Source: Eledone cirrhosa (lineage: Eukaryota). Taken from it: a stretch of 64,000 nucleotides of DNA. The notes beneath the pieces were generated by a model, which saw only the letters and a list, made by a program, of their open reading frames with translations, had not been told where the DNA came from and ran no database searches. Where the stretch lies: contig OZ024743.1 in assembly GCA_964016885.1 (NCBI GenBank), positions 68,138,001 to 68,202,000 of the forward strand. Reading direction: 5' to 3'. Positions 9,212-52,733 of this stretch are shown in pieces. The stretch's first letter is position 1. Each line of letters begins with the position of its first letter. The position numbers were made by a program, and so were the translations under genes.

Positions 9212-11311
9212 TTAAGTTATTTTATAGTGAGAGAATTTAGCTTTTAGTTTGTGGTTGCAGTATAATGATCGTTCAATTCTATCGTTAAGTAGTTTGTTTT
9301 TGGATTTTAGTATGTAAAATAGCTCAAGGTTACATAACCTGCAGTACTTCAAACCACTCCGATATGCATTTGCGCTGGAAAGTATATCCCATTTTAAGGT
9401 GAACTGTTGGTTGTGTTCACGGAGTTGCCAGGTCTTGTTGGCGAGCGTGGTCACAAAACGGTGATTCTGATGTTTGATTGAGAATCGATGACGGTACCAG
9501 CGAGATTTAAACGATGTGGTGGTAGATCCGATATAATACCATTTCTGGTCGTCCGATTCAACCGTGCATTGGTAAACAATGTTGGACTTTAGGCATTCAT
9601 TCTGCAATGGACATCTTTCAGGTAGATGGCAGTTACATGCTTTGTTGTGGGTGGCGGGTATACCATGGATAGGTTGTGATAGCGGTACAGGTGGGTTGTG
9701 CAATACCCGTCTCCCATTTAGTGGTTGGGAGGCAGATATTGCGTTCTGCCCATCTGTTACTAAAATGTTTTGTTTTGTAGAGTTGTTTAATTGCCTTAAG
9801 TTAAGTTTTTTTATGTATGCTTCAAAGTTTGGTGCCGTGGAGTATGATAGTCTAATAGTTTTGGAGTTCAGAATTTTGCTGTACTTATGGGAACTAGGGA
9901 AGTGTTTATTGATTAATTTAAAGAATGAAAGAGATAGTTTTGTACTAATCGAGGCATTAAAAATAGGATTATACCAGATATACTTTCTACAACGTGATTT
10001 ATTTGGTGGTGATCTTCTATTATTAGTATGTCTGGTAGTACAGTGTGTGTGTGCTTGTGTTTTAGTCCCCCGGTTACGTATACCTAGATTACGTGTAGAG
10101 CTATGTGTGTTGTGGAAATTACTATCGATGTATTCTATTGTATCCCGGTGGTCAGCATTCCTTAATGCATTATTGTAGTATTCAGCATGTTCGCTAAAAA
10201 TATCAGAGTTAGACGATAGGCGAGAGATTCTAAGAGAAATACTCCGGGGAACTGATTTGATCATGGAGAGTGGGTGGTTAGAGTTAAAGTCAATATACGT
10301 AAGGTTCTCATTTACCTTGTGGAAGGGTCGTATCTGTCCGGTATTTAAATTAAGAGTTACGTCCAGAAAGTTTACTACCTTAAGATTGTATTCGTATGTT
10401 ATTTTTAGACCCAGTTCACTAAAAGATTTTCTAATATTTTTCCGTAGCCTTTCAAGATTTTGGTTATTCAAGTTATTAACTAATAAGAGCCCGTCATCTC
10501 TATATATCCCCCCCTGTAGATTACTACATCTACTATGTAATATGTGGGCTATGTAAATTCCCACGAGATCCGTGACCTCCGCCGAGTCGTTGGAACCCAT
10601 GGTAATATCGAAATTTGTGGGTCTGTCCTTACGTTCCCAGTAGCAGTTATCGAACTTAATAATGGTTTTTCTAGCCTCGAGAATAATATTAATTTCGTCC
10701 TCCGTTAGGTCGGAATTGGCCTTAGCAAACGATAGGGCCTTACGAAAAGTGCTTGGTGAGATGGAAGAGTAGTATTCGTCTATGTCAAATTGTATAAACT
10801 TAGATTTATTCTTATTCTTAACATTATTAAACCAGCGAATTGCTTCGCTAGTGTTGCCCCATAATTTAATTTCAATTTTCTTTTTCACTTGAGTTATTAC
10901 TCTGTCAAGTATATGTTTACTAATTTTCCCTATGTCTGATTTAGAAGGGCATATAAGTCTTATCTTAGGGTTAGAGTCAAAATTTACCTTATGGTCCTTC
11001 AGGTTGAAGGTGGGGGTAGCGGGTATAATCGGCTCGGTTCTATCGTCTATCTTGAGATTCTTTACCACTTTATATGCCTCGTTGTTAATATTTGCTAGCG
11101 TAGTTTCATTTGTTTTTCTATATTTTTTGTGTAGTTCTTTGCGTATGAAGTTATTATACGTATCGATATCCATGGTATACACGTTAGAAGTCTTGTCAGC
11201 TTTCACAACAATTCCATTGGTATTTTGCAATCTTCGGAGTAGTGCTTTCATGTTGTTCTGCAGCTCATTATTTCTATGTCTGTTGAACTTAATGTTCATG
11301 GTAGTTTTCAA
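9212..11311 (-). CDS. PLE reverse transcriptase + GIY-YIG endonuclease (Naiad-like); uninterrupted frame, truncated at ~11339
   Basis: Motifs ADKTSN, QFDIDEYYSSI, FDITMGS, GGIYRDDGL, FLDVTL, CNCHLPERCPLQNECL, IVYQC..YYIGST..R, CRLCNLE, CNH. Confidence 0.93.
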   Translation of the reverse strand: MKTTMNIKFNRHRNNELQNNMKALLRRLQNTNGIVVKADKTSNVYTMDIDTYNNFIRKELHKKYRKTNETTLANINNEAYKVVKNLKIDDRTEPIIPATPTFNLKDHKVNFDSNPKIRLICPSKSDIGKISKHILDRVITQVKKKIEIKLWGNTSEAIRWFNNVKNKNKSKFIQFDIDEYYSSISPSTFRKALSFAKANSDLTEDEINIILEARKTIIKFDNCYWERKDRPTNFDITMGSNDSAEVTDLVGIYIAHILHSRCSNLQGGIYRDDGLLLVNNLNNQNLERLRKNIRKSFSELGLKITYEYNLKVVNFLDVTLNLNTGQIRPFHKVNENLTYIDFNSNHPLSMIKSVPRSISLRISRLSSNSDIFSEHAEYYNNALRNADHRDTIEYIDSNFHNTHSSTRNLGIRNRGTKTQAHTHCTTRHTNNRRSPPNKSRCRKYIWYNPIFNASISTKLSLSFFKLINKHFPSSHKYSKILNSKTIRLSYSTAPNFEAYIKKLNLRQLNNSTKQNILVTDGQNAISASQPLNGRRVLHNPPVPLSQPIHGIPATHNKACNCHLPERCPLQNECLKSNIVYQCTVESDDQKWYYIGSTTTSFKSRWYRHRFSIKHQNHRFVTTLANKTWQLREHNQQFTLKWDILSSANAYRSGLKYCRLCNLELFYILKSKNKLLNDRIERSLYCNHKLKAKFSHYKIT

Positions 11312-12167
11312 TAAGTCCTGTTCGAAAGCTTCGAGGTGAGAAATGGTATTATATCGGATCTACCACCACATCGTTTAAATCTCGCTGGTACCGTCATCGA
11401 TTCTCAATCAAACATCAGAATCACCGTTTTGTGACCACGCTCGCCAACAAGACCTGGCAACTCCGTGAACACAACCAACAGTTCACCTTAAAATGGGATA
11501 TACTTTCCAGCGCAAATGCATATCGGAGTGGTTTGAAGTACTGCAGGTTATGTAACCTTGAGCTATTTTACATACTAAAATCCAAAAACAAACTACTTAA
11601 CGATAGAATTTAACGATCATTATACTGCAACCACAAACTAAAAGCTAAATTCTCTCACTATAAAATAACTTAACATTCGAACCCGTAACTACAACACCAC
11701 TTTCTAGCTAACAACCTTCTCTTCCCCCCACACTACAAGACAATACACTGCTTATCACTATACATGGTAACTCAGTACAACTCCTAGAATACTACTACAA
11801 TACCAAAAGTTCACTCACCACACATATTTATCTGTCCCCTCTCTACCTATATATCTCTCTCTACATCCATTACACTCTCTCTCTCTCTCACCTTTGACCT
11901 ACCTCCCTCTCAACATTTATGAACCTGCCCTCTGGGGCAATAAATAATTCCGACCTCAACTATCTACGCATCTCTCCAAAAGTAACTAATAAAATCCCTA
12001 CCATAACATTTTGATTAAGATATCTACAAGCCACTCTCTCCCACTTCTCCAACCCCTGCATGTCTTTCCTTCTCTCTCCTTCTTCCCTACTTTTCTCTCT
12101 TCCTGTTCCACTCTATCTTCCCCCAACAACCCCACTTAAGGGTTTTTACATTGTATATTTACCATTC

Positions 12168-19962: not shown

Positions 19963-20039
<77 letters not shown>

Positions 20040-20269
20040 AGTATGCATGTATACGTACATACATATATGTATACAGACGTACAGTAGCATGCACATATAT
20101 ATATATATATACATATGCATACAGGTACACATACATATATGCACGTATCAGTTTAGCGGCGCTTATTATAACGTCGCTTTGTTCATTTGTAAACAAACTG
20201 AACAGCCTGAATTTATGCCATACGGTGTTAAGGCAACCACGTCACCTTTTTGTTCAACACTGACACAGG

Positions 20270-20314
20270 AACGATGTACTAGTTTCAAGCTTGTTAGCTA
20301 TCATCAGCACCGTT
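20270..20314 (-). ncRNA. Minimal hammerhead ribozyme
   Basis: AACGGUG CUGAUGA U-AGC-UAACAA-GCU-U GAAA C-UA-G UA CAUCGUU. Confidence 0.85.
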
Positions 20315-20741
20315 TACCCATCTGCCAGATAGTTGAACGTTCGAAAGTATATACTTTCCTTATGAAAATTAATGGCTGAGTAGCCTAATTTGCATATTGA
20401 GTGAGTTAAATCGGTCAGGCATACCGAAAACGATAAATTGAAACAAAATGAAAACGAAATTTCATTTCTCACTCTTAGTATGGCACTTACTTAAATGTAA
20501 GTATGCATGTATACGTACATACATATATGTATACAGACGTACAGTAGCATGCACATATACATATATATATACATATATATATACATATGCATACAGGTAC
20601 ACATACATATATGCACGTATCAGTTTAGCGGCGCTTATTATAACGTCGCTTTGTTCATTTGTAAACAAACTGAACAGCCTGAATTTATGCCATACGGTGT
20701 TAAGGCAACCACGTCACCTTTTTGTTCAACACTGACACAGG

Positions 20742-20786
20742 AACGATGTACTAGTTTCAAGCTTGTTAGCTATCATCAGCACCGTT
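20742..20786 (-). ncRNA. Minimal hammerhead ribozyme
   Basis: Identical to 20270-20314, 472 nt away. Confidence 0.85.
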
Positions 20787-20965
20787 TACCCATCTGCCAG
20801 ATAGTTGAACGTTCGAAAGTATATACTTTCCTTATGAAAATTAATGGCTGAGTAGCCTAATTTGCATATTGAGTGAGTTAAATCGGTCAGGCATACCTAC
20901 TCAGCCATTAATTTTCATAAGGAAGGTATATACTTTCGAACGTTCAACTATCTGGCAGATGGGTA

Positions 20966-21010
20966 AACGGTGCTGATGATAGCTAACAAGCTTGAAACTA
21001 GTACATCGTT
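20966..21010 (+). ncRNA. Minimal hammerhead ribozyme
   Basis: CTGATGA 20973-20979, GAAA 20994-20997, GTA 21001-21003, 7-bp stem I. Confidence 0.85.
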
Positions 21011-21954
21011 CCTGTGTCAGTGTTGAACAAAAAGGTGACGTGGTTGCCTTAACACCGTATGGCATAAATTCAGGCTGTTCTGTTTGCTGACAAATGAACA
21101 AAGCGACGTTATAATAAGCGCCGCTAAACTGATACGTGCATATATGTATGTGTACCTGTATGCATATGTATATATATATGTATATATATATATATATGTG
21201 CATGCTACTGTACGTCTGTATACATATATGTATGTACGTATACATGCATACTTACATTTAAGTAAGTGCCATACTAAGAGTGAGAAATGAAATTTCGTTT
21301 TCATTTTGTTTCAATTTATATATATGTATATAACTAGAAATTGATTGACATATATATATATTTAAAATATATATAATAAATAAATATATATATATATATA
21401 TATTTAAAATTTATATAATAAATAAATATATATATATATATATATACATATATCGTATCCTTCATAAATGCTCAATGTCTTACATTATTGTGTCACTATC
21501 CTGTTATTGTTGAAACACCATATTTAACTTCAATTATAATATAAATGTATAATGAGGACCGCGAACTACACTATGTCCTTATATAACCATTTTGGAATTC
21601 GATACGAACAACGCTGCCTCCCGTCGATTCAATCATCTAAGTTGAATTCATAAATGGTAACTAAAGAATAACATCACACCATATATATGAATAATTATTG
21701 CAAAGGGTTAACGTTATCTAGGCGAAAGAATCACCTGTTCTGGTTTATCCTTTTTTTTACGATGGAATCATTTAAAATTTCCCTGTCAAGAAGATCTTAC
21801 TTAATTAAAATGCCAAATATTTTATCTATTGCTATGATAAATGCTATTCAAAATGTTGAAATTCTTATATTCATCCTTGACATCACTTTGTTTTATCATT
21901 CTAATTATTCTCCAAGCCTACAAAATTGTACTTTTATTAGTTTTTGTTCATAAC

Positions 21955-25973: not shown

Positions 25974-26205
25974 ACATGTATACATATATACACAGAGAGA
26001 GAAAGAAAGAAGGAGAAAATGGATGAAAATGTGTTAGATGAAAATACAACGAGGTATTGCAAATGTAAGCAACAGCGTCATGACAATTATTTGATGTAAA
26101 ATAAAACAAATTAAATATTGAATTGTTCACCATCCTCTCTATTTCTGATATAATTATTATGTTGTAGATGGTGAGCTACAGAAAATAACATGTCTTGAAA
26201 TTAGC

Positions 26206-26242
<37 letters not shown>

Positions 26243-26247
<5 letters not shown>

Positions 26248-26967
26248 AATTAAGTTAAAGTGTACATCTACATATGTATACGGAAGTACTAGTATGCATA
26301 TAAATACACATATGTATACACATGTACATGTACCGAGCTTTTCACTATACACTTTACAGTGAGTGTCCAGCTAGTCTGTATGTAAACACACAGACGAACC
26401 GGGTTTTAAAGTCATACGGGTTTTCAAGGAAACACACTTCCTCTATCCTCCAGAGAGCCAGACAGGAATATTGGACTAGTTTCGATGTTATTACATCTCA
26501 TCAGCAATATATACCTATCTTCTGGCTTCTCCGGAGAATTGTAAAAGCACATATCGTTATATGCTTTTTCTATGAAAATCAGTAGTGGGCAGACTAATTT
26601 GCATAGAACGTGAGTCATTGTACGCGCCGGTTCAGCGGAAACGATAAAAACAAATAACGAAACGAAATTAAATTTCAATATTCCTGTCTGGCTCTCTGGA
26701 GAATAGAGGAAGTGTGTTTCCTTGAAAACCCGTATGACTTTAAAACCGGTTCGTCTGTGTGTTTACATACAGACTAGCTGGACACTCACTGTAAAGTGTC
26801 TAGTGAAAAGCTCGGTACATGTACATATGTATACATATGTGTATTTATATGCATACTAGTACTTCCGTATACATATGTAGATGTACACTTTAACTTAATT
26901 GTTTAAGCGTCAGTCATACAAAAGTGAGTTAGAAGCGAAACGAAATTTAATTTCGTTTCTTTATTTG

Positions 26968-26973
<6 letters not shown>
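26243..26973. mobile_element. Diverged family-A HHR unit: minus copy 26243-26676 plus inverted, circularly permuted copy 26676-26973
   Basis: 26676-26905 = reverse complement of 26243-26473; 26942-26973 = reverse complement of 26644-26676. Confidence 0.85.
26468..26510 (-). ncRNA. Canonical minimal hammerhead ribozyme
   Basis: AUAUUG CUGAUGA GAUGU-AAUA-ACAUC GAAA C-UA-G UC CAAUAU; all stems perfect, GUC cleavage triplet. Confidence 0.92.
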
Positions 26974-26993
<20 letters not shown>

Positions 26994-26998
<5 letters not shown>

Positions 26999-27940
26999 CA
27001 TAAAACATGTCGTTAGAATCACTAGATATAATATATACCATTTCCTCTCCCAATTAGCATAATTAACCATATTCAAAATCAATTAGACCAAGCTATAAAA
27101 ATAAAGGCTCCTATGAAGAAGCTCCGACAAATAACCGAAAGCAGCCCCTTCGCGGTGGCTACGATGGAGTATTTATCGAACATTTCGACAGCATGTAGAA
27201 ATCGACCAGATATACAGTCAACCAAACACAATTAGTTGTAAAATCAACCTTAGAAGAAATGCGTACATACCAAATTACCTCTACCATGGTTTCATCCGTA
27301 TTTTAAGACATCCGATAACAGGGAATGTCTAGAGCTTCGGATTCATCAGGAGTGAGCTCAAAATTAGACATTTAATTTTCCAAAGTGATCGCGCCAAAAA
27401 TACATTAAATAATGGCTAAGAATCGTGACGTGGCAGTGGTCAAGTTAGAAAGGATGTGATTAGTTGCTTACGGCGGGTAGGCTTATTGCTAGAAAACGCA
27501 GCCCAATATAGCCAAATTGTATCTCAACCTGACGGGAGATTATTACCATTAAAGGTTTACATATATATAAAGTCATAGATATATATGTGTTTTGCAACAG
27601 GTCACGTTGTGGCTCAATGAAGAATTAATAAATTAAATAATCAGAGCTATATATCATAAAACATGTCTTTAGAATCACTAGATATAATATATACCATTTC
27701 CTCTCCCAATTAGCATAATTAACCATATAAAAAATCAATTAGAACAAGCTATAAGAATAAAGGCTCCTATAAAGAAATCTCCGACAAATAACCGAAAGCA
27801 GCCCCTTCGCGGTGGCTTCGCGGTGGCTTCGCGGTGGCTTCGCGGTGGCTACGATTTTACACCTAATTGTGGTTGGTTGACTGTATATCTGGTCGATTTC
27901 TACATGCTGTCGAAATGTTCGATAAACACTCCATCGTAGC
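26994..27940. repeat. ~250-bp local duplication (26994-27245, 27651-27940) with internal micro-inversion and 11-bp tandem
   Basis: Direct sequence comparison. Confidence 0.8.
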
Positions 27941-28098
27941 GTTTTTTTCAAACATTTACCTCAACCTCATTTACATATTCATTTGCATACTCATCTTAAC
28001 AATTTTGATAAATCTGTTTTTAAGTCCACTATTCAGGGAAAATTTCAACCGTTAAGGTATGTTCCTTGGCTATGTCAAAATTTATAAAACACACTTTA

Positions 28099-30542: not shown

Positions 30543-33500
30543 ATACCATCAACTTAATCTCACCTTCACCCTCTCAAGTGCTCCCCCATACCATCAATTT
30601 AATCTCACCTTCACCTTCTCCAAGAACGCCATCATACCATCAACTTAATCTCACCTTCACCATCTCCAAGTACTCCCTCATGCCATCAACTTAATCTCAC
30701 CTTCACCCTCTCCAAGTACTCCCACATACCATCAACTTAATGTCACCTTGACCCTCCCCAAGTACTCCCGCATACCATCATCTTAATCTCACCTTCACCT
30801 TCTCCAAGTACTCCCTCATGCCATCAACTTAATCTGACCTTCACCATCTCCAAGTACTCCCACATACCATCAACTTAATGTCACCTTGACCCTCCCCAAG
30901 TACTCCCCCATACCATCATCTTAATCTCACCTTCACCTTCTCCAAGTACTCCCCCATACCGTCAACTTAATCTCACCTTCACCCTCCCCAAGTACTCCCC
31001 CATACCATCAACTTAATGTCACCTTCACCCTCCCCAAGTACTCCCCTTACCATCAACTTAATCTCACCTTCACCCTCCCCAAGTACTCCCCCATACCATC
31101 AACTTAATCTCACCTTCACCCCCCCCACCTCAACTACTCACCCATACCATCAACTTAATCTCACCTTCATCCTCCCCAAGTACTCCCCATACCATCAACT
31201 TAATCTCACCTTCACCCTCCCCAAGTACTCCCCATACCATCAACTTAATCTCACCTTCACCCTCCCCAAGTACTCCCCCATACCATCAACTTAATCTCAC
31301 CTTCACCTTCCCCAAGTACTCCCCCATACCATCAACTTAATCTCACCTTCATCCTCCCCAAGTACTCCCCCATACCATCAACTTAATCTCACCTTCACCT
31401 TCCCCAAGTACTCCCCCATACCATCAACTTAATCTCACCTTCACTCTCCCCAAGTACTCCCCCATACCATCAACTTAATCTCACAATCACCTTCTCCAAG
31501 TACTCCCCCATACCATCAACTTAATCTCACCTTCATCCTCCCCAAGTACTCCCCCATACCATCAACTTAATCTTACCTTCACCCTCTCCACTTACCCCCC
31601 CATACCATCAACTTAATCTCACCTTCACCCTCTCCAAGTACTCCCCATACCATCAACTTAATCTCACCTTCACCCTCTCCAAGTACTCCCCCATACCATC
31701 AACTTAATCTCACCTTCACCCTCTCCAAGTACTCCCCCATACCATCAACTTAATCTCACCTTCATCCTCCCCAAGTACTCCCCCATACCATCAACTTAAT
31801 CTTACCTTCACCCTCTCCACTTACCCCCCCCCCCCATACCATCAACGTAATCTCACCTTCACCCTCCCCAAGTACTCCCCCATACCATCAACTTAATCTC
31901 ACCTTCACCCTCTCCAAGTACTCCCCATTAGCATCAACTTTATCTCACCTTTACCCTCTCCAAGTACTCCCCCATACCATCATCTTAATCTCACCTTCAC
32001 CCTCTCCAAGTACTCCCACATACCATCAACTTAATGTCACCTTGACCCTCCCCAAGTACTCCCCCATACCATCATCTTAATCTCACCTTCACCTTCTCCA
32101 AGTACTCCCTCATGCCATCAACTTAATCTCACCTTCATCCTCTCCAAGTACTCCCACATACCATCAACTTAATGTCACCTTGACCCTCCCCAAGTACTCC
32201 CCCATACCATCATCTTAATCTCACCTTCACCTTCTCCAAGTACTCCCCCATACCGTCAACTTAATCTCACCTTCACCCTCCCCAAGTACTCCCCCATACC
32301 ATCAACTTAATCTCACCTTCACCCCCCCCAAGTACTCCCCATACCATCAACTTAATCTCACCTTCACCCTCCCCAAGTACTCCCCCATACCATCAACTTA
32401 ATCTCACCTTCACCCCCCCCACCTCAACTACTCCCCCATACCATCAACTTAATCTCACCTTCATCCTCCCCAAGTACTCCCCATACCATCAACTTAATCT
32501 CACCTTCACCCTCCCCAAGTACTCCCCATACCATCAACTTAATCTCACCTTCACCCTCCCCAAGTACTCCCCCATACCATCAACTTAATCTCACCTTCAC
32601 CTTCCCCAAGTACTCCCCCATACCATCAACTTAATCTCACCTTCATCCTCCCCAAGTACTCCCCCATACCATCAACTTAATCTCACCTTCACCTTCCCCA
32701 AGTACTCCCCCATACCATCAACTTAATCTCACCTTCACCCTCCCCAAGTACTCCCCCATACCATCAACTTAATCTCACCTTCATCCTCCCCAAGTACTCC
32801 CCCATACCATCAACTTAATCTTACCTTCACCCTCTCCATTTACCCCCCCCCCATACCATCAACTTAATCTCACCTTCACCCTCTCCAAGTACTCCCCCAT
32901 ACCATCAACTTAATCTCACCTTCACCCTCTCCAAGTACTCCCCCATACCATCAACTTAATCTCACCTTCACCCTCTCCAAGTACTCCCCCATACCATCAA
33001 CTTAATCTCACCTTCATCCTCCCCAAGTACTCCCCCATACCATCAACGTAATCTCACCTTCACCCTCCCCAAGTACTCCCCCATACCATCAACTTAATCA
33101 CACCTTCACCCCCCCCCCCCACACCTCAACTACTCCCCCATACCATCAACTTAATCTCACCTTCACCCTCCCCAAGTACTCCCCCATACTATCAACTTAA
33201 TCTCACCTTCACCTTTCCCAAGTACTCCCCCATACCATCAACTTAATCTCACAATCACCTTCTCCAAGTACTCCCCCATACCATCAACTTAATCTCACCT
33301 TCATCCTCCCCAAGTACTCCCCCATACCATCAACTTAATCTCACCTTCACCCTCTCCAATTACCCCCCCCCCATACCATCAACTTAATCTCACCTTCACC
33401 CTCTCCAAGTACTCCCCCATACCATCAATTTAATCTCACCTTCACCCTCTCCAAGTACTCCCCCATACCATCAATTTAATCTCACCTTCACCCTCTCCAA

Positions 33501-33800
33501 GTACTCCCCCATACCATCAACGTAATGTCACCTTCACCCTCCCCAAGTACTCCCCCATACCATCAACTTAATCTCAGCTTCACCCTCTCCAAGTACTCCC
33601 CATTAGCATCAACTTTATCTCACCTTTACCCTCTCCAAGTACTCCCCCATACCATCAACTTAATCTCACCTTCACCCTCTCCAAGTACTCCCCCATACCA
33701 TCAACTTAATCTCACCTTCACCCTCTCCAAGTACGCCCCCTTACCATCAACTTAATCTCACCTTTACCCTCTCCAAGTACGCCCCCATAACATCTACTTA
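30543..33800. repeat. 46-bp tandem satellite, ~70 copies, with degenerate flanks out to ~30390 and ~34110
   Basis: Unit TACCATCAACTTAATCTCACCTTCACCCTCTCCAAGTACTCCCCCA. Confidence 0.95.
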
Positions 33801-50925: not shown

Positions 50926-52733
50926 TAATCTTTATGTCTCCTCCGATAAAACCAAAAACGTTTAGGAGGTAGACCCACAGACCTACAATAAGCTGGCAAA
51001 AAATTCCATCACGACCACCTAAAAAAGGTAATAGAGATGGCACTGACTGAGACAAACGCGGCCGGAAAAGAAATCGCCAAGTCCCTTAAATTACACGACC
51101 GAACCGAACCTTTAAGGGTAAAGACCCCGCACTTTACCCTGAAGGACCATAAGGTAACTTCTTCAACAAACCATCAGTCAGACTTATCAACCCCACTCGT
51201 TCTGACATCGGCTCTATCAGTAAGAAGATCCTGGATAGAGTTCTACCATCATTGCGGGCTGCCTCACCACTTCCACTCTGGAGCAGAACATCTGAGGCAA
51301 TATCATGGTTCCAAAAATTACCCGACAAACACCACACTCGCTTCCTGCAACTCGACATAGAAAACTACTATGCCTCTATCTCGGAGCCCCTCCTGAAGTA
51401 CGCAATTAACTTTGCCAGGAATTTTACCACCATTACCGATGCTGAGCAAGTTGTTATCCTCCACGCTCGTAAGACCTTTCTATACCACGATGGATCATAC
51501 TGGATCAACAAGAAATCTCAGACCCCATTTGATGTTAGCATGGGAGCGAGTGACTCGGCTGAACTTAGCGACCTTGTGGGCCTGAACATCCTACATCACC
51601 TGAAGAACCTCTTTACCGGCCTAACGGGAGGCTTATACCGAGACGACGGCCTTTTCGCCCTGCATAAGGTTAACCCCAGAACCACCGATGGGTTTCGGAA
51701 AAACTTAAGCTCATTCTTCTCTAATCTAGGATTTAGTATAACTATAGAATCTAATTTGACTAGGGCCAACTTCTTAGATGTCACTCTCGACCTAGATACT
51801 TCCCTCTATTACCCGTACCACAAACCTAACGAGTCCCTTAAATATATTAATGTTAATTCAAACCACCCCCAAAACATCACTGATAACCTAGTAAAAAGCG
51901 TCTCTATTAGAATATCTGGCCTCTCCGCCAACAAAGATATTTTTAACGCATCTGCCTCCTACTACAATGACGCCCTCGCCCGTAGCGGATTTAAAGAAAA
52001 GATAACATACCTAGAAACCACCGCAAGATTACAGAGGAGGAATAGACATAGGCAGATTAGCTGGTACAACCCTCCCTTCAATAGAGAGGTCTCTACTCCG
52101 ATAGCTAGCATTTTCTTCACTTTGCTGAAATTACACTTCCCCACACAACATAGGTACCACACCATCTTTAATAAGAACACAATAAGACTCTCCTACTCCA
52201 CCACACCTAACCTAGCTAGGAATATAGCCAACCACAATTCTAAAAAATTAAATAAGCCAACCACCTCCGAACCCAATCCCCGGACTGGGGCTCTGTGTAA
52301 TTGCCTAAATAAGGAAGCATGCCCACTTGAAAACAAATGCCTCACAAATGATATCGTATACAAATGCGATGTCATCTCAGGCACCGATGATTGCAAAAAA
52401 ACTTACATCGGCATGACCTCCAACAACTCTAAGACCCGTTGGTATGCCCATACCCACTCCTTCAGAAGACCGGACAAATCAAACCAGACAACACTCGCCT
52501 ACTACCTCAAAAGGAACTCCACCCCCTTCACGCTTAAATGGAAAATACTCCAGAAAGCGCGCTCTTACAACGGAGGACACAAGGGCTGCGAACGTTGTAT
52601 TTCAGAGAGCTACGAAATTTTATTCGCCAAGGGCCCGCTACTGAACAAAATCTCTGAACACTGCCCGAACTGCATGCACAAGAACTTTGCAACTTTCAAA
52701 CACTTTAAGCCAGTGTTAAAACCCGATGGCTAA
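50926..52733 (+). pseudogene. Naiad-like RT + GIY-YIG ORF (5'-truncated; stop and frameshift upstream of the 51252-52733 frame)
   Basis: SDKTKN, QLDIENYYASI, GGLYRDDGL, CNCLNKEACPLENKCL, IVYKC..TYIGMT, CERCISE. Confidence 0.9.

Follow-up and report, generated by a model that had tools for sequence, protein, structure and literature searches.

The window, by which we mean the whole 64,000-nt stretch of the Eledone cirrhosa assembly that was analyzed (contig OZ024743.1, positions 68,138,001 to 68,202,000), contains at 26243 to 26974 a short repeat in which two arms are joined head to head between two (TA)n target microsatellites, one on the left (26208 to 26244; 18.5 copies by tandem-repeat count) and one on the right (26972 to 26998; 13.5 copies). 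The repeat is built from a unit that we number from the first base 3' of a predicted self-cleavage site, GUC^C (26474/26473, minus strand). Arm A (26243 to 26676, minus strand) comprises unit positions 268 to 469 followed by 1 to 231, crosses the cut site, and has its outer end, the A site, on (TA)n; arm B (26676 to 26974, plus strand) comprises unit positions 1 to 300, and its outer end, the B site, also abuts (TA)n. The arms meet at 26676, a base that the alignment assigns to both, which gives 1 nt of microhomology between unit 268 of arm A and unit 1 of arm B. The plus arm from 26676 to 26905 matches 26473 to 26243 over 231 nt (98.3%), 26942 to 26974 matches 26676 to 26644 over 33 nt, and the arms differ at 4 of 262 common positions. 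The stretch between the two fixed ends, unit 232 to 300 (26906 to 26974, plus strand), forms a tail with a hairpin at unit 262 to 288; it is nearly invariant across subfamilies, as is unit 215 to 300 generally.

Much of this anatomy had been recognized in a preliminary description of the locus. The minus copy with its hammerhead (CUGAUGA...GAAAC-UA-GUC), the minus arm from 26676 to 26243 and the predicted cut at 26474/26473 agree with the sequence, and the plus copy does begin at the cut (26676) with 1 nt common to the other arm. The circularly permuted unit of about 470 nt, obtained there as 231 + 36 + 203, is arithmetically right, and natural cut-to-cut units of 469 to 470 nt exist in tandem elsewhere in the genome. 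The proposed 36-nt linker (26906 to 26941) is correctly placed but is not a separate linker: it is unit 232 to 267, the first half of the 69-nt tail.

The ribozyme is predicted to be a type I hammerhead with a helix I, a 5-bp helix II, and a 2-bp helix III with a UA loop. The Rfam search of the window gave no match at the gathering level; below it, Hammerhead_HH9 matched 26452 to 26522 on the minus strand (34.2 bits, E 1e-6, against a gathering score of 52). The region has a fold z of -3.55, and 6 of 13 ribozyme pairs show compensatory changes on both sides among six sequences from two families, a modest degree of support because the structure was drawn from the same sequences. Self-cleavage at GUC^C is thus predicted from the motif, the HH9 alignment and the covariation. 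A search with the core motif recovered 114 distinct natural units, with a type I hammerhead in each repeat unit. The units form head-to-tail repeats from dimers up to large multimers, and a satellite-like array of more than 55 kb (G000:C1, about 95.62 to 95.68 Mb; L060-L067 and L296) starts with an ordinary A end on (TA)n. No open reading frame of 120 aa or longer overlaps the copy in the window, and the GC content of 26001 to 28000 is 0.347. The hallmark of an autonomous Penelope-like element (PLE), an open reading frame with reverse transcriptase (RT) and GIY-YIG domains, is absent from the element and occurs elsewhere in the genome. Judged by its sequence, the element is a non-coding non-LTR retrozyme, as all features assessed are present, and its style of insertion is PLE-like: an inverted 5'-truncated copy placed head to head, a one-sided tail, and (TA)n targeting, with (TA)n flanks in the retrozyme insertions inspected. 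It is a new member of an element class that is itself already known.

Several other features lie in the window. A different repeat occurs twice, at 26992 to 27163 and at 27648 to 27850, with a spacing of about 656 nt; in its second copy an 11-nt unit is expanded four times. From 30543 to 33800 there is a minisatellite in which a 46-nt unit recurs about 70 times and the strand skew is extreme. Open frames of 715 codons (9212 to 11359, minus strand) and 526 codons (51153 to 52733, plus strand) match no Pfam family, nor do any of the seven long open reading frames of the window that were compared with Pfam.

Genome-wide, exact pattern searches counted at least 1,992 B ends (arms ending at unit 300), which puts the family at about 2,000 copies. 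The most frequent A end, unit 226 with TA following, was counted 1,017 times, versus 3 for the reversed control. The patterns for A ends and for the subfamily group of the window copy demanded TA, whereas the B-end pattern did not. We sampled 90 of the first 100 B-end places, 30 of 34 and 30 of 36 places in two further sets, 90 of the first 100 A-end places and, for the subfamily group of the window copy, 60 of the first 100 of 277 places; most sampled loci are on contig C1. Since sampling was anchored on outer ends, the inner junctions are unselected. Circular dynamic programming, with natural copies of each subfamily as the reference, was used to call junctions. The following were set aside before counting: four loci at which the match proved to be a point variant within the unit; the duplicates L097, L189 and L199; records of L210, L260-262, L374 and L381 that were repeats or nested; and 12 rows that arm length paired with a row of another set, although one of these 12 may represent a separate locus.

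The strongest regularity of the family is its fixed and paired outer ends, which the cut-site reading of the preliminary description does not account for. A ends lie at about unit 222 to 236, mostly at 226, 228 or 231, and B ends at 293 to 301, mostly at 300. In 158 of 280 insertions the opposite arms have one A and one B end; only 3 have like ends, far fewer than free choice predicts, as independent choice of site at each end would make about half of the pairs alike. The rest comprise 17 insertions with a stub of the expected opposite arm, 23 that end elsewhere, 45 without an opposite arm and 34 cut by the edge of the locus. The same arrangement is found in a second hammerhead family, for which 897 exact B ends were counted genome-wide. 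Of 30 loci of this family, 10 have a complete opposite arm on TA, and all 10 of these arms end 59 to 65 nt before B; the other loci comprise 14 in which the arm runs off the locus, 3 without an opposite arm and 3 with an end elsewhere. A copy of this family is present in the window at 20032 to 21319; it has a 472-nt unit with a GUA cut and the same head-to-head, two-end anatomy, and its inner junction (20897) is off the cut. Among coding elements with RT and GIY-YIG domains, both ends were seen in 6 of 10 loci, and all 6 are A plus B. The CX2-5CxxC linker of these coding elements suggests that they belong to Neptune, by the criterion of PMC8557442.

The inner ends tell a less orderly story. 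The preliminary description read the exact start of the plus arm at the cut as a footprint of reverse transcription of a self-cleaved RNA, and predicted that breakpoints collected from all copies would peak there. No sharp peak was found, and that part of the expectation was rejected: among 373 inner ends of arms longer than 100 nt, 4 fall at unit positions 0 to 2 versus 2.5 expected (p 0.25), and in the window copy's subfamily group the count is 0 of 162. The 23-mer that follows the cut has only 7 exact genome-wide matches preceded by a base other than C, 6 of which are point variants inside read-through repeats; a further 573 matches have the preceding C. The window copy is thus the one true junction among 580 exact matches. 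Moreover, of the 344 arms that extend into the zone, 306 continue across the cut. What does exist is a broader excess within 30 nt after the cut: unit 1 to 30 holds 56 inner ends versus 24.7 expected (2.3-fold; scan p 0.0007, and still p 0.0005 after correction for an overdispersion of 2.3), and the best 30-nt interval, with all 469 tried, starts at 468, 469 or 1. The flanking intervals are depleted (13 versus 29.8 and 15 versus 25.7), and both arm types show the excess (23 versus 9.1 and 23 versus 9.9). The excess is real and comes mostly from subfamilies other than that of the window copy (41 versus 13.1, compared with a nonsignificant 15 versus 11.7 in the window copy's group; p 0.002 for the difference, post hoc). 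The 60 newly sampled loci of that group alone give 10 versus 5.7 (p 0.064), and the second hammerhead family gives 3 versus 1.7 among 27 events, which is not significant. A split by cleavage triplet was dropped because it is biased: a locus that stops short of the cut lacks the triplet.

How the ribozyme enters into this can be read in different ways. If the plus arm of the window copy were the full run-off of an RNA self-cleaved at this very site, with breakpoints peaking at the cut, one would expect what is indeed seen in the window, an arm that starts at unit 1 or 2, and also the position of the top-scoring interval and the three other arms that begin at unit 1 (L196, L255 and L336). The exact-site counts, the single junction among 580 matches and the frequency with which arms cross the cut make this strict form unlikely; as a family-wide rule it already fails. 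The excess itself might instead reflect stalling of the RT in helix I, or transcript starts, rather than ribozyme cleavage. On the one hand, the enriched zone coincides at both edges with the 3' strand of helix I (unit 2 to 29), its profile is flat rather than decaying, and no significant enrichment of junction inserts as a whole is seen there (9 of 34 versus 15 of 95, p 0.2). On the other hand, other helices show no excess (1.36 versus 1.53 per kb), and helix I is no stabler in the enriched subfamilies (about -32 versus -29 to -37 kcal/mol), yet the excess differs by subfamily. Both points somewhat favor cleavage, and we regard stalling or transcript starts as a credible but lesser possibility. 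Cleaved RNA likely templates a minority of arms, and the window junction is not identifiable as one of them; its exact start at the cut is probably due to chance, mostly a coincidence within a weaker real signal. In several insertions (e.g., L123, L128 and L336) one arm stops at the first cut and the other runs past it, so that a single linear cleaved RNA cannot explain both. In L319, L320 and L196, homopolymer inserts (T11, an A-rich 26-mer and TTT, respectively) occur where an arm starts at unit 1 to 19; they resemble untemplated run-off additions.

The two arms of an insertion are independent in extent and related in sequence. A fold-back copy must lie within its template arm, so insertions that break this containment exclude fold-back; containment is broken in 52 of 152 paired insertions, and independent lengths, modeled by shuffled pairing, predict 51.5. 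In 24 of the 152, including the window copy, each arm has sequence that is missing from the other. Arm lengths correlate weakly (rho 0.25). The junctions have 0 to 3 nt of microhomology in 119 of the 152 insertions, more in 8, and an insert in 25. B arms halt near the A site on the first pass more often than expected (14 versus 6.2, p 0.005), and the collision signatures at unit 291 to 312, and at 221 to 240 on later passes, are not significant. An excess of fold-back at junctions, sought in an earlier set, was rejected (starts of the two arms within 15 nt of each other in 15 of 127 versus 9.9 shuffled, p 0.065).

Divergence between the arms of one insertion is 0.66%, versus a subfamily median of 2.1%, and is below the median in 98 of 103 insertions; an arm is closer to its own partner than to every other locus in 55 of 103, tied in 16 and farther in 32. 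Private variants shared by both arms number 29 (in 22 loci), with 126 in a single arm, and the shared rate is 0.72/kb versus 0.016/kb in cross-locus controls. Half of the arms (222 of 440) are longer than one unit, and successive passes share 69 private variants (1.26/kb). Adjacent units differ by 0 to 7 nt in 12 of 14 long dispersed arms, mostly by 0 to 5, and eight units are identical in L351, whereas adjacent units of the large array differ by 6 to 12 nt in 9 of 9 pairs from two stretches. These data suggest that the arms of one insertion stem from a common source, and the near-identical units fit an RT circling a monomer; the inference of reverse transcription from a tandem or circular template, made in the preliminary description together with the permuted unit, has held up. 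The shared variants could also be compatible with gene conversion, a homogeneous multimer, or two RNAs of one source locus. In L145, L357 and L380, the differences between adjacent units tend to climb along some long arms (e.g., 0, 0, 2, 2, 3, 4).

The direct observations are the unit and its ribozyme motif, the two fixed ends and the way they pair one of each, arms that cross the cut, and the private variants that are shared. From these we propose, with reasonable confidence, that the head-to-head insertions arise when both ends of a (TA)n break serve a Penelope-like RT-endonuclease as primers, likely on circular RNA. In such a scheme, tandem transcripts would self-cleave and the monomers would be ligated into circles. 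A Neptune-type protein, possibly a dimer, would bind the invariant unit 215 to 300 and cut both (TA)n strands; one 3' end would prime at about unit 226 to 231 and the other at 300, with 1 to 3 nt of T/A pairing. Each RT would then travel a variable distance, often more than one turn, and the two cDNA ends would join through 0 to 3 nt of microhomology, followed by fill-in. A minority of arms (about 8% of ends; an excess of about 31 of 373) likely stop at the 5' end of ribozyme-cut RNA, losing 0 to 30 nt. Extended to PLEs as a whole, the proposal is that insertion proceeds by obligate site-assigned twin priming, in which the break ends use different fixed sites of one RNA, that retrozymes record an RT circling circular RNA, and that the ribozyme leaves a subfamily-dependent footprint on about 8% of arm ends; we hold this broader statement to be somewhat better than evenly balanced. 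If it is true, one rule accounts for the tandems, the inversion of the pLTR and the presence of the tail on one side only.

Other routes to the same geometry can be envisaged. Priming might occur once, at B, followed by a switch to antisense RNA or by self-priming, with the A end produced by endonuclease resolution of an intermediate. Self-priming on an antisense template has been proposed for PLEs (PMC3846280), and resolution by the endonuclease has been proposed as the origin of the PLE tail (PMC8557442). ATT, the in vitro cut motif (PMC11167929), is present in the A site, which is AT-rich, and an A arm made as a copy of B is compatible with 75 of 152 insertions. Pure fold-back, however, is excluded in just the number of insertions that independent arms predict, the two starts lie within 15 nt of each other at only 18 of 152 junctions, and A arms show a post-sense-cut excess equal in kind to that of B arms; we therefore consider single priming improbable. 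Twin priming could alternatively take place on uncleaved linear multimers rather than circles, with homogeneity coming from young multi-unit sources or gene conversion. In vitro, cleavage is dispensable and unprocessed RNA is the main substrate (PMC11167929), in both L021 and L029 a 10-nt step between units occurs once, and the L021 array alternates units of 470 and 432 nt, which suggests a heterodimeric template or later duplication. The greater distance between array units than between units of most long dispersed arms tells against this route, and the sharing of private variants shows no increase with arm divergence (rho -0.15), contrary to what conversion would predict; linear templates thus appear doubtful. 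There is next to no likelihood that an assembly error or a subsequent DNA inversion produced the junction, given that the like anatomy, with different inner junctions, recurs on several large contigs in 152 further insertions that are fully resolved or comparable, and that the arms of the window copy carry differences between them. Twin priming at two assigned sites, probably on circles, remains our preferred reading.

A mobilizing partner was sought among coding elements. No terminal sequence or pLTR homology to the retrozyme unit was found among 48 GIY-YIG loci, drawn from 150 listed of 10,596 candidates. At L086 (2769 to 3034), unit 85 to 126 continues in the sense orientation, and without TA, into RT sequence that shares 95% identity with the L285 PLE family, which has 6,463 exact A ends; this fusion is a possible template-switch chimera that may point to the mobilizer. 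It remains a single lead, because no exact A end of the L285 family is at the expected place among the matches listed. At L069 (710 to 898), a retrozyme B arm adjoins an inverted C-terminal fragment of a PLE open reading frame with 73% protein identity to L281.

How tandem and inverted PLE structures originate has been described as unsolved (PMC8557442), what follows priming is unvalidated (PMC11167929), and the mobilization of retrozymes by PLEs from circles has only been proposed (PMC7229834; bioRxiv 10.64898/2026.07.22.740005). About 2,000 short natural insertion records that discriminate between models supply countable evidence on an open mechanism, and a 470-nt substrate with two mapped ends suits the in vitro assay already established. 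Builders of RNA-templated insertion tools would be interested in a system able to write both strands of a break from circular RNA.

In LINE-1 twin priming, both target ends prime on the element RNA, yielding a 5' inversion joined by microhomology; first priming is at the poly(A) and the second at a variable site, and the arms are not known to overlap. The retrozyme insertions resemble this in the priming of both target ends on element RNA and in an inversion with a microhomology joint. Unlike in L1, both sites are fixed and internal and the arms overlap in 110 of 127 pairs, which sets these insertions apart from twin priming of the L1 type.

Known non-LTR retrozymes are short non-coding tandem units with one type I hammerhead each, for which circles and PLE mobilization have been proposed (PMC7229834; bioRxiv 10.64898/2026.07.22.740005), and the present family shares all of these traits. 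Its unit size is above the 170 to 400 nt of PMC7229834 and inside the 51 to 972 bp of bioRxiv 10.64898/2026.07.22.740005. Inverted arms or paired ends appear in the main text of neither: the word "inverted" occurs 0 times in the former and once, in a reference, in the latter, where "tail" occurs 0 times. With Neptune, Poseidon and Naiad PLEs (PMC8557442, PMC3846280) the family shares partial tandems, an inverted 5'-truncated copy placed head to head, a tail that is often at one end only, and (TA)n targets; the inverted copy and one-sided tail were thus already known for PLEs from these sources. Unlike those elements, the retrozyme has no open reading frame, and its tail is 69 to 74 nt rather than 30 to 40. 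In the available text of those papers, the tail is optional and the geometry is attributed to self-priming or endonuclease resolution, whereas in the retrozyme the pairing has been counted and is near-obligate.

The closest biochemical parallel is PAc Poseidon, for which two internal start sites bound the tail in vitro and both target strands are cut and extended (PMC11167929). In the scheme proposed above, the retrozyme shares with it two tail-bounding starts, the use of both strands, AT-rich targets and a predicted dimer. In the PAc study as available, the strands show no difference in start site, no reads end at the ribozyme site, the later steps are left open, and the two sites are not connected with inverted arms. 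Without a strand preference of that kind, the one-of-each rule would have to arise within single events. A literature search of openly accessible main texts found no published site-assigned PLE twin priming, count of end pairing, exclusion of fold-back or account of this geometry in retrozymes, and PMC12910113, in its available text, adds no mechanism. Circles as templates have been proposed in PMC7229834, and self-cleavage, ligation and reverse transcription beyond unit length were proposed for PLE tandems in PMC4209133; what is a proposal there gains genomic support here from the near-identical units and the shared private variants.
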